Source: Escherichia coli (GTDB lineage Bacteria; Pseudomonadota; Gammaproteobacteria; Enterobacterales; Enterobacteriaceae). Taken from it: a DNA stretch of 64,000 nucleotides. Below, one piece after another: positions 58,829 through 62,293 of the stretch (its first letter is position 1; each line of letters begins with the position of its first letter). The notes under the pieces were generated by a model that did not search any database, was not told the DNA's origin, and was given only the letters and a program-made list of their open reading frames with translations. The stretch lies in assembly GCF_024298765.1 (NCBI RefSeq), contig NZ_CP101210.1. One strand, given 5' to 3'. A program made the translations under genes and the position numbers.

Positions 58829-59581
58829 ATGAACCTTGAAGCCTTACCAAAATATTACTCCCCAAAATCTCCAAAATTGAGCGATGACGCACCGGCGACA
58901 GGCTCTGGTGGTTTAACAATTACGGATGTAATGGCTGCGCAGGGGATGGTGCAGTCGAAAGCACCGCTTGGGTTTGCCTTATTCCTGGCAAAAGTTGGTG
59001 TTCAGGATCCTCAGTTTGCGATTGAAGGTCTGCTCAATTACGCGATGGCACTGGATAACCCGACATTGAATAAATTGAGTGAAGAAACCCGGCTACAGAT
59101 CATTCCTTACCTTGTGAATTTTGCCTTTGCTGATTATTCCAGGTCTGCGGCAAGTAAGGCTCGCTGTGAGCATTGTGCTGGTACTGGATTTCATAATGTA
59201 TTGCGCGAGGTGGTGAAACACTCCAGAAGCGGGGAATCTGTTATCAAGGAAGAGTGGGTGAAGGAACTATGTCAGCATTGTCATGGTAAGGGAGAAGTCA
59301 GCACAGCGTGCAGAGGGTGTAAGGGTAAAGGTATTGTCCTGGATGAAAAAAGAACCCGGCTTCATGGTACGCCTGTTTATAAGATTTGTGGGCGTTGCAA
59401 TGGTAACCGTTTTAGCCGTTTACCAACCACACTGGCGCGGCATCATGTCCAGAAGCTGGTACCAGACCTGACGGATTATCAGTGGTACAAAGGATATGCA
59501 GATGTCATTGATAAACTGGTTACAAAGTGCTGGCAGGAAGAAGCATATGCAGAGACACAATTGAGAAAAGTGACAAGATAA
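58829..59581 (+). CDS. Late gene antiterminator Q
   Basis: Start at MNLEALPKYY with SD ggaga; zinc-finger-like CEHCAGTG ... CQHCHGKG ... CRGCKGKG ... CGRCNG; followed by late promoter/terminator region. Confidence 0.8.
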   Translation: MNLEALPKYYSPKSPKLSDDAPATGSGGLTITDVMAAQGMVQSKAPLGFALFLAKVGVQDPQFAIEGLLNYAMALDNPTLNKLSEETRLQIIPYLVNFAFADYSRSAASKARCEHCAGTGFHNVLREVVKHSRSGESVIKEEWVKELCQHCHGKGEVSTACRGCKGKGIVLDEKRTRLHGTPVYKICGRCNGNRFSRLPTTLARHHVQKLVPDLTDYQWYKGYADVIDKLVTKCWQEEAYAETQLRKVTR

Positions 59582-59691
59582 ATGATTTTCGCCGAAGATG
59601 GCGACATGATGCTTGCATTTTTCAAAAAATCTGGTTAGGATTCTCCTAACGATGGGCTTTGTATGTCTGCCGTTAACGAAATCATAACAAA

Positions 59692-59713
59692 CCTCGCTTC
59701 GGCGGGGTTTTTG
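59692..59713 (+). terminator. tR'-like rho-independent terminator after the late promoter
   Basis: Hairpin cctcgc-ttcg-gcgggg followed by tttttgctttt. Confidence 0.7.
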
Positions 59714-59731
59714 CTTTTCTGGAGGTCAATA

Positions 59732-59989
59732 ATGCAGGGCGAAAAGCAGCAGCCATATTTTTTTAACCCTGGTATGACTGTTGAACAGCTTGAAGACTGG
59801 CTGGAGCAGCAAAAGCTTCATCTAAGCCGCTATAACCGTCTGGTAAAAGAAAAAGCAGAGCTTGAAGAACGGCTCAGTGATATTTCTGTGGAAATTGAAC
59901 GAATGTCTGCTGGTGGTTTTAACGGAAAGTTGAGTTTCCCCTGGGAGTCAAGTTCGCTTCTGAGAAATCATCAACAGGGTAGTGTTTGA
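59732..59989 (+). CDS. Hypothetical small protein (85 aa) immediately downstream of tR'
   Basis: ATG at 59732 with SD ggagg; coiled-coil-like (LEQQKLHLSRYNRLVKEKAELEERLSDISVEIERM). Confidence 0.5.
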   Translation: MQGEKQQPYFFNPGMTVEQLEDWLEQQKLHLSRYNRLVKEKAELEERLSDISVEIERMSAGGFNGKLSFPWESSSLLRNHQQGSV

Positions 59990-60068
59990 CTGAAATAATA
60001 AACAGACTGTCATTAAGATCCCTTCCCCTCATATCTGAGAGGACCAACAGCAATTAAGAGGGGGCTAA

Positions 60069-60455
60069 ATGTCCGATCCGATTTCCGGTACTGGGCTGGC
60101 TGGTGGTGCCCTGACGGGTGCCAGTGTTTATGGACTGCTGACCGGAACTGATTACGGCGTTGTATTTGGCGCATTTGCAGGGGCTGTATTCTACATAGCA
60201 ACAGCAGCAGATCTGAGTGCATCGCGTCGACTGGCATATTTTATCGTGTCATATATTGCCGGGATTCTTTGCTCTGGGTTGGTTGGCTCCAAGCTGGCGA
60301 ACTTGACCGGATACAGTGATAAACCTCTGGATGCTATTGGTGCCGTAATCGTCTCTGCTTTAGCCGTTAAAATCCTGACGTTCCTGAATAATCAGGATAT
60401 CGGCTCGCTGGTGGCGCTCATAACGCGCCGGGGAGGTTCAGGTGGAGCTAAATGA
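60069..60455 (+). CDS. Putative holin (multi-TM small membrane protein)
   Basis: 128-aa ORF with about three hydrophobic helices; first gene of the lysis cassette; SD agaggggg. Confidence 0.6.
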   Translation: MSDPISGTGLAGGALTGASVYGLLTGTDYGVVFGAFAGAVFYIATAADLSASRRLAYFIVSYIAGILCSGLVGSKLANLTGYSDKPLDAIGAVIVSALAVKILTFLNNQDIGSLVALITRRGGSGGAK

Positions 60456-60723: not shown

Positions 60724-61337
60724 TGAACCAACAATTATTTCAAAAGGCGGCTGGTATTAGCGCCGGGCTGGCTGCGCGCTGGTTTCCGCACATTGATGCG
60801 GCGATGAAGGAATTCGGCATTACAGCACCAGCGGATCAGGCAATGTTTATCGCTCAGGTAGGCCATGAGTCGATGGGGTTTAGCGCCGTAGTTGAAAATT
60901 TTAACTACACACCATCTGCGCTGGTGGCGACGTTCGGAAAGAGGATCACACAGCAGCAGGCTGATGCCCTTGGCAGAACATCCGGACATGCAGCTCGTCA
61001 GGATGCTATTGCCAATCTGGTGTATAGCAACCGACTGGGTAACAAAGCACCAGGTGATGGCTGGAAATATCGTGGTAGAGGATTAATTCAAATCACTGGC
61101 CTCCATAATTATCGCATCTGTGGCGCGGCGCTGAAGTTAGATCTGGTGACTTCACCTGAACAACTGGAACAGGAACTACAGGCTGCGCGCTCAGCTGCAT
61201 GGTTCTACACCTCTAAAGGTTGCATGATCTACGGTGCCGATATTAACCGTGTTACGCGCATCATTAACGGCGGTCTGAACGGTATTGAGGATCGTAAGGT
61301 CCGATACAACAAGGCGCGGGCGGCGCTGCTGGTATGA
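60723..61337 (+). CDS. Endolysin, glycoside hydrolase family 19 (chitinase-like)
   Basis: 204-aa ORF; GH19-like catalytic region (FIAQVGHESMGF ... YRGRGLIQITG); ATGA overlap with upstream gene. Confidence 0.8.
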   Translation: MNQQLFQKAAGISAGLAARWFPHIDAAMKEFGITAPADQAMFIAQVGHESMGFSAVVENFNYTPSALVATFGKRITQQQADALGRTSGHAARQDAIANLVYSNRLGNKAPGDGWKYRGRGLIQITGLHNYRICGAALKLDLVTSPEQLEQELQAARSAAWFYTSKGCMIYGADINRVTRIINGGLNGIEDRKVRYNKARAALLV

Positions 61338-61726
61338 AGATGAGTTATTGGGCGCTCATTTTAACGTTTATTGCTTGTGTCGCTGGTGGTCTTGTCTGGT
61401 CAGCGAATCACTATCATGGAAAGTTTCTGGAGGAGCAGAAGCGTGCTGATGCTGCGGAACAGCGAGCTGATTCTACTGAGGCTATCACCGCGAATGTTCT
61501 GCGTACTATGGCAATAACGAACATCATTCAGGAGGCGAATCAACATGCAAAACAGCAGATCGCACTGGAGTCACAGAGAACCCAGGAAGATATCAAAGTG
61601 GCTGTTGCGGATGATGATTGTGCTTCACGTCCTGTGCCTGCTGCCGCTGCTGACCGGTTGCGGAAGTACGCGAACAGTTTACGTCCAGGTTCCGGTAGTT
61701 CCGTTACCAGCCAGCCTGACGGCTGA
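61334..61726 (+). CDS. Rz-like inner-membrane spanin (i-spanin)
   Basis: 130-aa ORF; N-terminal TM then coiled-coil periplasmic domain; follows the endolysin. Confidence 0.75.
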   Translation: MKMSYWALILTFIACVAGGLVWSANHYHGKFLEEQKRADAAEQRADSTEAITANVLRTMAITNIIQEANQHAKQQIALESQRTQEDIKVAVADDDCASRPVPAAAADRLRKYANSLRPGSGSSVTSQPDG

Positions 61727-61880
61727 AACCCCTCAGCCTGATTTACCTGATCATTTTACGTGGGGCTCGAGCTTAGATCTGAATGTCGCCTTGTTGTCTG
61801 CATTGGCGCAGTGTAATACCGATAAAGCTGACATCAGAAGGATTGAAGTTGAGCGTGGTCACATCATGCAAAAAAAATGA
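61611..61880 (+). CDS. Rz1-like outer-membrane lipoprotein spanin (o-spanin), overlapping Rz in another frame
   Basis: Start at MMIVLHVLCLLPLLTGCGS (lipobox LTGC); proline-rich; overlaps the Rz 3' end. Confidence 0.7.
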   Translation: MMIVLHVLCLLPLLTGCGSTRTVYVQVPVVPLPASLTAETPQPDLPDHFTWGSSLDLNVALLSALAQCNTDKADIRRIEVERGHIMQKK

Positions 61881-61972: not shown

Positions 61973-62293
61973 ATGAAAGATGGTATCTATTTTGTTGTTT
62001 TCAGAAGCAATCAACGTGATTTTGGTAATGGTACCGTAGTTGTCAAAAACAATGCAGTAAATGGCGGAGATTTTGGTTTTACGTATCAGGGAAAAATTGA
62101 CGGTAGCCAACTTATTCTGCGCGTATCGCAGCATGATTTAAATGTCACCTCGGTTTTCCCTGGGGTAAAGAACTTTGAATTGAGTCTTTCTTTGCAGGAA
62201 CGAGGACGTGATTACCTGTTAAATGGATCTGTGGTCGGAATGCCTCAGATGCAAATTTCAATTAGTGCAAAATACATTGGTGATCTGATTTAG
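61973..62293 (+). CDS. GrlR-like (lipocalin-fold) family protein, tentative
   Basis: 106-aa ORF starting MKDGIYFVVFRSN, reminiscent of GrlR-family proteins from memory; followed by terminator aaccgcctccgggcggtttttta. Confidence 0.45.
   Translation: MKDGIYFVVFRSNQRDFGNGTVVVKNNAVNGGDFGFTYQGKIDGSQLILRVSQHDLNVTSVFPGVKNFELSLSLQERGRDYLLNGSVVGMPQMQISISAKYIGDLI

Follow-up and report, generated by a model that had tools for sequence, protein, structure and literature searches.

A small gene behind the late terminator of an Escherichia coli prophage as the orphan half of a convergent two-gene cassette

The stretch analysed here (64,000 nucleotides of contig NZ_CP101210.1, Escherichia coli assembly GCF_024298765.1; hereafter the window) contains the late regulatory and lysis region of a prophage, in which a small open reading frame (ORF) at 59732..59989 lies between a Q antiterminator gene with the late terminator tR' and two holin genes (Table 1). 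Judged from comparison with relatives, this ORF is the orphan half of a widespread, mobile two-gene cassette. The small ORF is a genuine protein-coding gene. It runs from ATG 59732 to TGA 59987-59989 (85 codons), and the identical 258-bp coding sequence (CDS) was called by PGAP in enterotoxigenic E. coli (ETEC) H10407 as a hypothetical protein (WP_001542448.1). Over codons 1-60, the ratio of nonsynonymous to synonymous substitution rates (dN/dS, omega; Nei-Gojobori) against relatives was 0.07-0.21 at dS of 0.8-2, which rules out both an ORF that arose by chance and a constraint acting on RNA or DNA alone, and the start codon and Shine-Dalgarno (SD) sequence were conserved across the alignment of relatives. 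A first-pass annotation had described an 85-aa ORF with a good SD, starting about 20 nt past the late terminator hairpin and ahead of the holin genes; the start and stop coordinates and a GGAGG 6 nt upstream of the ATG agree with this, the measured distance being 21 nt and the holins beginning at 60069. An Rfam scan of 59300-60200 returned nothing at gathering thresholds.

A longer 108-aa frame from ATG 59663, which would run across the terminator, was considered and dropped as its upstream part was not conserved: the terminator-to-ATG distance was 21, 22 or 23 nt among the relatives compared, M1 and the SD were conserved, and PGAP chose the 85-aa start. The homologue Sb50 of phage ST64B is annotated with an over-long 119-aa start of this kind, running across the terminator. 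Within the small ORF, a T7 run is a recurrent frameshift site. Loss of a single T from it puts the ATG out of frame and has occurred independently in E. coli and Klebsiella (L056-L058, L146, L148), and variants that have lost the start read ...AAAIFFNPGM (E. coli L056-L058; Klebsiella L146, P0061 and P0065). Either a mutational hot spot or a slippage site that switches the gene on and off could account for this.

Table 1. Features of the Q-to-holin interval, in window coordinates
Feature	Position	Strand	Basis
Q antiterminator gene, 250 aa	58829..59581	+	PHROG 127 (E 5e-109); PF03589 twice (2e-30, 2e-19) and DnaJ-type zinc finger
Putative late promoter PR' and pause element	59613..59656	+	Read from sequence; analogy with lambda
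tR' intrinsic terminator (9-bp stem, TTCG loop, T tract)	59689..59718	+	Terminator scan; dG -12.2
Shine-Dalgarno GGAGG, 6 nt 5' of the small-ORF ATG	59721..59725	+	Sequence; conserved in relatives
Small ORF of the PHROG 3501 family, 85 aa	59732..59989	+	Sequence, profile match, alignment, AlphaFold2, dN/dS
T7 run in small-ORF codons 9-11; repeated frameshifts here have cost some relatives their start codon	59758..59764	+	
Degenerate site of the partner's embedded terminator, antisense to codons 40-49	59849..59878	-	Hairpin folding
Partner remnant, 44 codons, no proper start (MLLVLSDMRGRDLNDSLFIISVKHYPVDDFSEANLTPRGNSTFR)	59919..60053	-	tblastn; BLASTP
Junction of 66-bp deletion between CTGAAA repeats	59990..59995	.	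Three-way DNA alignment
Start of holin module; holin gene at 60069..60455	60023..60455	+	PHROG 198; holin-only megablast matches begin at 60023

All the elements of a lambda-type late unit were found upstream of the small ORF, namely a Q gene (its H10407 counterpart is labelled 'antitermination protein' by PGAP), a promoter with a pause element and a downstream intrinsic terminator, and read-through by Q is predicted. The putative PR' consists of a -35 element TTGCAT (59613-18), a 17-nt spacer and a -10 element TAGGAT (59636-41), followed after 6 nt by AACGATGGG (59648-56), while PR' of lambda reads TTGACT, 17 nt, TAAATT, 6 nt and then the identical 9-mer, which we take to be its sigma70-dependent pause and Q-engagement (Q-loading) element. 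The candidate scored below the threshold of a generic promoter scanner; by analogy with lambda, 59613..59656 would be PR' with a leader of about 70 nt that ends at tR'. The terminator stem (59689-59710) reads AAACCTCGC-TTCG-GCGGGGTTT and is followed by TTGCTTTTCT; in the 17 representative relatives with an equivalent hairpin, it always stood 21-50 nt ahead of the ATG. No promoter was found between tR' and the small-ORF ATG, and the sole promoter-like match, at 59971-59999, was downstream of the start and at chance level. Since the ATG is only 21 nt past the stem and leaves no room for a promoter, the small ORF would be expressible only from read-through (Q-modified) transcripts, and as the first frame after PR', the pause element and tR' it should depend on Q read-through for its expression. 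In Shiga toxin (Stx) phages, PR' is reported to fire constitutively while its transcripts are terminated in lysogens, which leaves a short RNA (PMC7547250). The leader of the window (59648..59718, + strand) would likewise give a constitutive RNA of about 70 nt in lysogens; Rfam matches to it were sub-threshold only (istR-like, 26 bits against 45).

The small protein matched the PHROG 3501 profile, a family catalogued as of unknown function, over residues 1-84 to 1-84 of 85 (E 1.2e-54). Its homologues, about 59 clusters at 90% identity in the Enterobacteriaceae, were confined to Enterobacterales prophages and included proteins of the phages ST64B (Sb50), 118970_sal3, SKA5 and several Klebsiella phages, while a profile search of 1.84 billion representative proteins recovered only 31 clusters, all of the same family or its fragments. 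Four conserved motifs were apparent in the family alignment, with PYFFNPGM at the N-terminus, EQLEDWL and KEKAALEERL (KEKAxLEERL) within a helix at residues 17-60, and SFPWDPSPLL (SFPWxPSPLL, or more loosely SFPWxxSxLL) at the C-terminus, from which the window protein departs by A43E and by WESSSLL in place of WDPSPLL. AlphaFold2 (AF2) predicted a single long amphipathic helix over residues 17-60 with a predicted local distance difference test (pLDDT) score of 85-96 and less ordered tails. The protein is acidic (pI 5.3), soluble and hydrophilic (grand average of hydropathy, GRAVY, -0.84; maximum Kyte-Doolittle (KD) value 0.2) with no transmembrane segment, and nine of the twelve heptad a/d positions are hydrophobic, so that its earlier description as coiled-coil-like is reasonable.

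Homology and structure searches, which had been proposed as a check, found PHROG 3501 and gave no functional identification. The Pfam search yielded only crAss001_48 (E 0.088), NCBIfam nothing below E 0.1 and the PADLOC (2.0) profiles no match; the PDB sequence-profile search returned designed coiled coils only (E >= 0.004), and Foldseek against PDB found no match to the model. The N-terminal QQPYFF was considered as a beta-clamp-binding motif and dropped because distant members lack it (EAPYFVNNSL, DKPYFYNPGL and KIVAPGY of Shigella phage SfIV).

Every diverged relative examined carried a full-length gene on the opposite strand (about 144-157 aa) whose overlap with the small ORF at its 3' end came to 71-107 nt among 19 unique intact pairs, and the pairing spanned eight Enterobacterales genera. 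The partner belongs to NCBIfam NF033230, 'ECs1072 family phage-associated protein' (E about 1e-49; intact partners scored about 165-175 bits against a curated cut-off of 70), and to PHROG 5286, of unknown function, and is described as an all-alpha protein. PADLOC profiles run on four partners gave only one weak match, to PtuB, in one of the four (E 0.002, 15.7 bits). Independent look-ups of distant partners located loci in Photorhabdus, Erwinia, Providencia and Citrobacter with the same order of terminator, small ORF and convergent partner between Q and the lysis genes, where the layout followed Q genes of either PF06530 or PF03589 and preceded different holins. Among 87 partner-bearing loci the small ORF was intact in 75, broken by nonsense or frameshift changes in 10, and without a match to the family hidden Markov model (HMM) in 2.

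The 3' overlap is accompanied by a second shared element. In 12 of 15 representatives with an intact pair, the complement of small-ORF codons 40-49 (KEKAALEERL) on the partner strand folded into a hairpin (dG -8.5 to -15.4) followed by a T run; the stem sequence differed from lineage to lineage. The intrinsic terminator of the partner thus lies embedded antisense in codons 40-49, and the transcripts of the two genes would share about 140 nt of complementary sequence. As would be expected of overlapping genes, dS was depressed in codons 61-80, which overlap the partner, and omega there was about 1. The idea that tR' serves the partner as a bidirectional terminator was set aside as unnecessary, the partner having its own terminator inside the small ORF. 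The partner gene is absent from deposited annotations of ST64B (L001 3188..3622, - strand) and of several Klebsiella phages (L002 and L003, 3161..3634, - strand). In one Klebsiella prophage (L070 3161..4267, - strand) the partner is split by an IS5/IS903-like transposase and the small ORF is intact.

One of the two partner-bearing loci without an HMM match was that of SfIV, where an unannotated 68-aa ORF (L092 2871..3076, - strand) lies downstream of cI, convergent with and overlapping the ECs1072-like gp36. Its N-terminal motif is similar and it is probably homologous to the small-ORF family (hhalign probability 35%). The 68-aa ORF has its own near-consensus promoter (TTGACA-16-CATAAT) and the gp36 terminator is upstream of its ATG, so that the logic of the cassette recurs at a rexAB-like position beside cI.

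In the window, the upstream terminator and the SD are present and both the intact partner and the embedded terminator are missing. The alignment of what is left of the partner with its ST64B counterpart covered residues 83-143 of the latter at 46% identity (E 4e-13), with a 22-codon internal gap, and no match to NF033230 remained. Relative to Salmonella phage 118970_sal3 and ST64B, 66 bp are deleted directly after the small-ORF stop, and everything 5' of partner codon ~83 has been lost in the sal3 and window lineages, with the holin leader in its place. The embedded hairpin is absent from the window and sal3 alleles; in the window it was lost because of A43E (GCCGCC to GCAGAG). Across 15 orphan alleles from 48 loci, the variable sites in codons 1-60 were 4 nonsynonymous and 4 synonymous, with the near-invariant Q6, G14 and N35 among the residues changed, and codons 61-85 held 7 nonsynonymous sites against 1 synonymous. 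Four of about 52 orphan loci were broken, by loss of the start through T7 slippage or by stop codons. These counts, small as they are, point to relaxed constraint on the orphan alleles, and the small ORF at the window locus is probably a decaying leftover that is drifting towards loss.

The slot that holds the small ORF is mosaic. The lysis genes downstream comprise two holins (60069.. and 60442..; PHROG 198 and 217), an endolysin of family GH19 and an Rz spanin. On the Q side, homology to other E. coli prophages, including the ydfT region of the K-12 prophage Qin, ended at about 59674 or at 59717, the end of tR', and on the holin side it resumed at about 60023. These sharp boundaries came from the comparison of the Q-to-holin interval with related prophages that had been suggested earlier. 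The full interval, with the orphan allele nearly intact, was found in 100 of 5426 complete E. coli genomes, more than 2500 shared only one flank, and many E. coli prophages had the same holin without the small ORF. The relatives had at least two Q families upstream (PF03589, PF06530) and at least four different holin/endolysin sets downstream, among them the ST64B holin with GH19 endolysin, a Klebsiella holin with Phage_lysozyme, Phage_holin_3_1, Phage_holin_2_1 and an M15 peptidase. Because of this variety of downstream sets, the small ORF is best regarded as cargo of a mosaic slot and not as a component of the lysis cassette.

The first-pass annotation had named identification as a conserved lysis-cassette component as the result that would overturn it, and the unrelated lysis modules in relatives speak for its view. 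Its proposal of a moron in a Q-dependent cargo slot held as far as the mosaic slot and the place as first frame after tR' are concerned and failed for a self-contained moron: the small ORF is polymorphic as an insertion and has no promoter or terminator of its own, a scan for terminator-like sites between its stop codon and the holin having found none. The GC content of the cargo (0.42-0.44) was slightly below that of the flanks. Nothing ties the small ORF to toxins or tRNAs, which had been mentioned as typical cargo.

We give an even chance to the reading that the small protein is a Q-dependent late protein tied to its partner through reciprocal convergent expression and orphaned in the window. 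With an intact cassette in a lysogen, transcripts from PR' would stop at tR' and the partner would be transcribed from a promoter of its own, its transcript terminating within the small ORF. Once the prophage is induced, RNA polymerase modified by Q would ignore both tR' and the embedded hairpin and the small protein would be made, while the same polymerase would run head-on through the partner gene and cause transcriptional interference together with a full antisense RNA. The likeliest role of the small protein in late lytic growth is to antagonise or modulate either the partner or a process under the partner's control. In the present prophage the role as antagonist would be gone, with the gene still transcribed as the first late gene.

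Several results weigh against this reading. An AF2 model of a partner-linker-small protein fusion brought no gain of confidence in the terminal motifs, with pLDDT blocks of 61/82/87/94/93/66/47/46 for the fusion as compared with 54/90/91/96/95/85/67/56/42 alone; this is a weak argument, as no inter-domain error was reported. No convincing match came from generic promoter scans of the region ahead of the partner gene in ST64B and one Klebsiella phage. An intact partner stands next to a broken small ORF in the 10 of 87 loci counted above (also in L090), and an intact small ORF stands as an orphan in about 48 loci. Either gene has thus been lost alone and any dependence is not obligatory, and the SfIV analogue beside cI with its own promoter indicates that Q-dependence is not universal. 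The orphan, nearly intact in so many complete E. coli genomes, could have a retained function of its own.

The main rival is accordingly a stand-alone late function, in which the small protein would be an accessory factor with a host target (anti-defence, host takeover, or a helper of late transcription or packaging), the orphan would be fully functional and the convergent gene would merely share the slot. We regard this as unlikely, if to be taken seriously. Strong purifying selection on the 60 non-overlapping codons and short linear motifs flanking the helix, which are typical of small binders, would both suit such a factor, as would the persistence of the intact orphan in the 100 E. coli genomes and in many IMG/VR prophages, and after the loss of the partner the remnant frame gained more radical changes than the small-ORF frame. 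Yet across eight genera the small ORF was always seen beside an ECs1072-family gene or a remnant of one, the orphan alleles have an excess of nonsynonymous change at otherwise invariant residues and are occasionally pseudogenised, and no similarity to known anti-defence or regulatory families was found. The tight linkage that counts here would also be expected if the small protein, an acidic and helical member of a two-gene unit, were the antidote in a toxin-antitoxin or abortive-infection pair with the ECs1072-family protein as toxic or defensive effector, and the cassette does occupy accessory or defence hot spots of prophages (the Q-lysis interval, and beside cI in SfIV). An antidote is improbable all the same: the two genes face each other, the small ORF is expected to stay silent in the lysogen, and some loci keep an intact partner beside a small ORF that is broken.

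Two further explanations need little space. Its place directly upstream of two holin genes in the window would suggest that the small protein is an antiholin or lysis-timing factor travelling with the holins, but this is very improbable given that homologues precede unrelated lysis modules, that the same holin often occurs without the small ORF, and that the protein has no hydrophobic segment. That there is no functional protein at all, the frame being held open by the antisense partner, by its 3' untranslated region (UTR) or terminator, or by a regulatory RNA, would accommodate the depressed dS and omega of about 1 in codons 61-80 and the double use of codons 40-49 as partner terminator. It is scarcely credible against codons 1-39, which lie outside both the partner and the terminator and are the most conserved at the protein level with saturated synonymous change, against omega of about 0.1 over codons 1-60, and against the conserved start and SD and the lack of any Rfam family at threshold.

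More speculatively, and in our estimate doubtful, the small protein and the ECs1072-family protein would form an undescribed two-component accessory system of prophages, spread across the Enterobacterales with hot spots after tR' and beside cI, in which the ECs1072-family protein would be expressed in the lysogen to the benefit of host or prophage (for example in phage exclusion or defence) and would be switched off late by Q-driven antisense transcription and the small-protein antagonist.

The two gene families were already catalogued, and what is new is their convergent pairing and the architecture of the cassette. A literature search found no description of the pairing of PHROG 3501 with NF033230, and searches for ECs1072, the accessions and the PHROG identifiers found one microarray table entry only. 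Two families of unknown function (PHROG 3501; NF033230/PHROG 5286) are thereby joined as one conserved convergent gene pair with an unusual coding arrangement, a 3' overlap plus an embedded terminator, which occupies accessory hot spots in many enterobacterial genera and is often misannotated or unannotated. At the family level the pair is a concrete candidate, open to test, for a prophage-encoded function that is new and has reciprocal regulation built in, and the small ORF should not be analysed alone, without its partner. For the window locus itself, a degenerate relic of a cargo cassette, little is at stake.

Other features were noted nearby and in relatives. A 106-aa ORF at 61973..62293 (+ strand) between Rz/Rz1 and the HNH/terminase genes lies where the GC content drops to 0.36-0.42, from about 0.5 in the flanks, and looks like a true moron; the identical H10407 gene is called 'GrlR family regulatory protein' by PGAP. 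An Rz1-like lipoprotein frame (61545..61880, + strand) starts inside Rz (61334..61726) and extends about 150 nt past the Rz stop, its H10407 equivalent being annotated lysC by PGAP. In a metagenomic prophage (L005 663..3889, + strand) three genes, encoding an AAA_15/AAA_21 ATPase of 426 aa and unknown proteins of 140 aa and 392 aa, stand between Q and the cassette of terminator, small ORF and partner, perhaps inserted into this hot spot as a defence-type element.

Among known systems, morons in the sense of Hendrix and colleagues are said to be extra genes with their own promoter and terminator that are expressed from the prophage. The small ORF shares with them the presence/absence polymorphism with sharp boundaries and the slightly low GC content, but it lacks both a promoter and a terminator of its own; the ECs1072-family partner with its own terminator fits the description better and is dead in the window. 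Stx phages and other lambdoid phages carry stx and tRNA genes in the slot before the lysis genes. The cargo of the Stx-phage slot is thus a toxin or tRNA, whereas that of the window is an uncharacterised small protein, ancestrally together with a gene facing the late transcript. Convergent and antisense controls are familiar in temperate phages from the face-to-face pR/pL interference of coliphage 186 and from the OOP and paQ antisense RNAs of lambda. The cassette likewise has facing units with overlapping 3' ends, and by this analogy their mutual depression would be expected, but in the cassette both units encode proteins, the tail-to-tail overlap is in coding sequence, and a terminator lies in the codons of the other gene.

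The closest parallel is the late unit of lambda (Q - PR' - qut/pause site - tR'). The window likewise has a Q gene, AACGATGGG placed 6 nt past the -10, a short terminated leader and a first late gene, while the Q types differ, being PF03589 with a zinc finger in the window and PF06530 in lambda. The leaders also differ in length, at about 70 nt in the window and about 194 nt for the longer lambda 6S RNA. The predicted leader RNA would be the analogue of lambda 6S RNA and of the StxS small RNA (sRNA) of Stx phages (PMC7547250).
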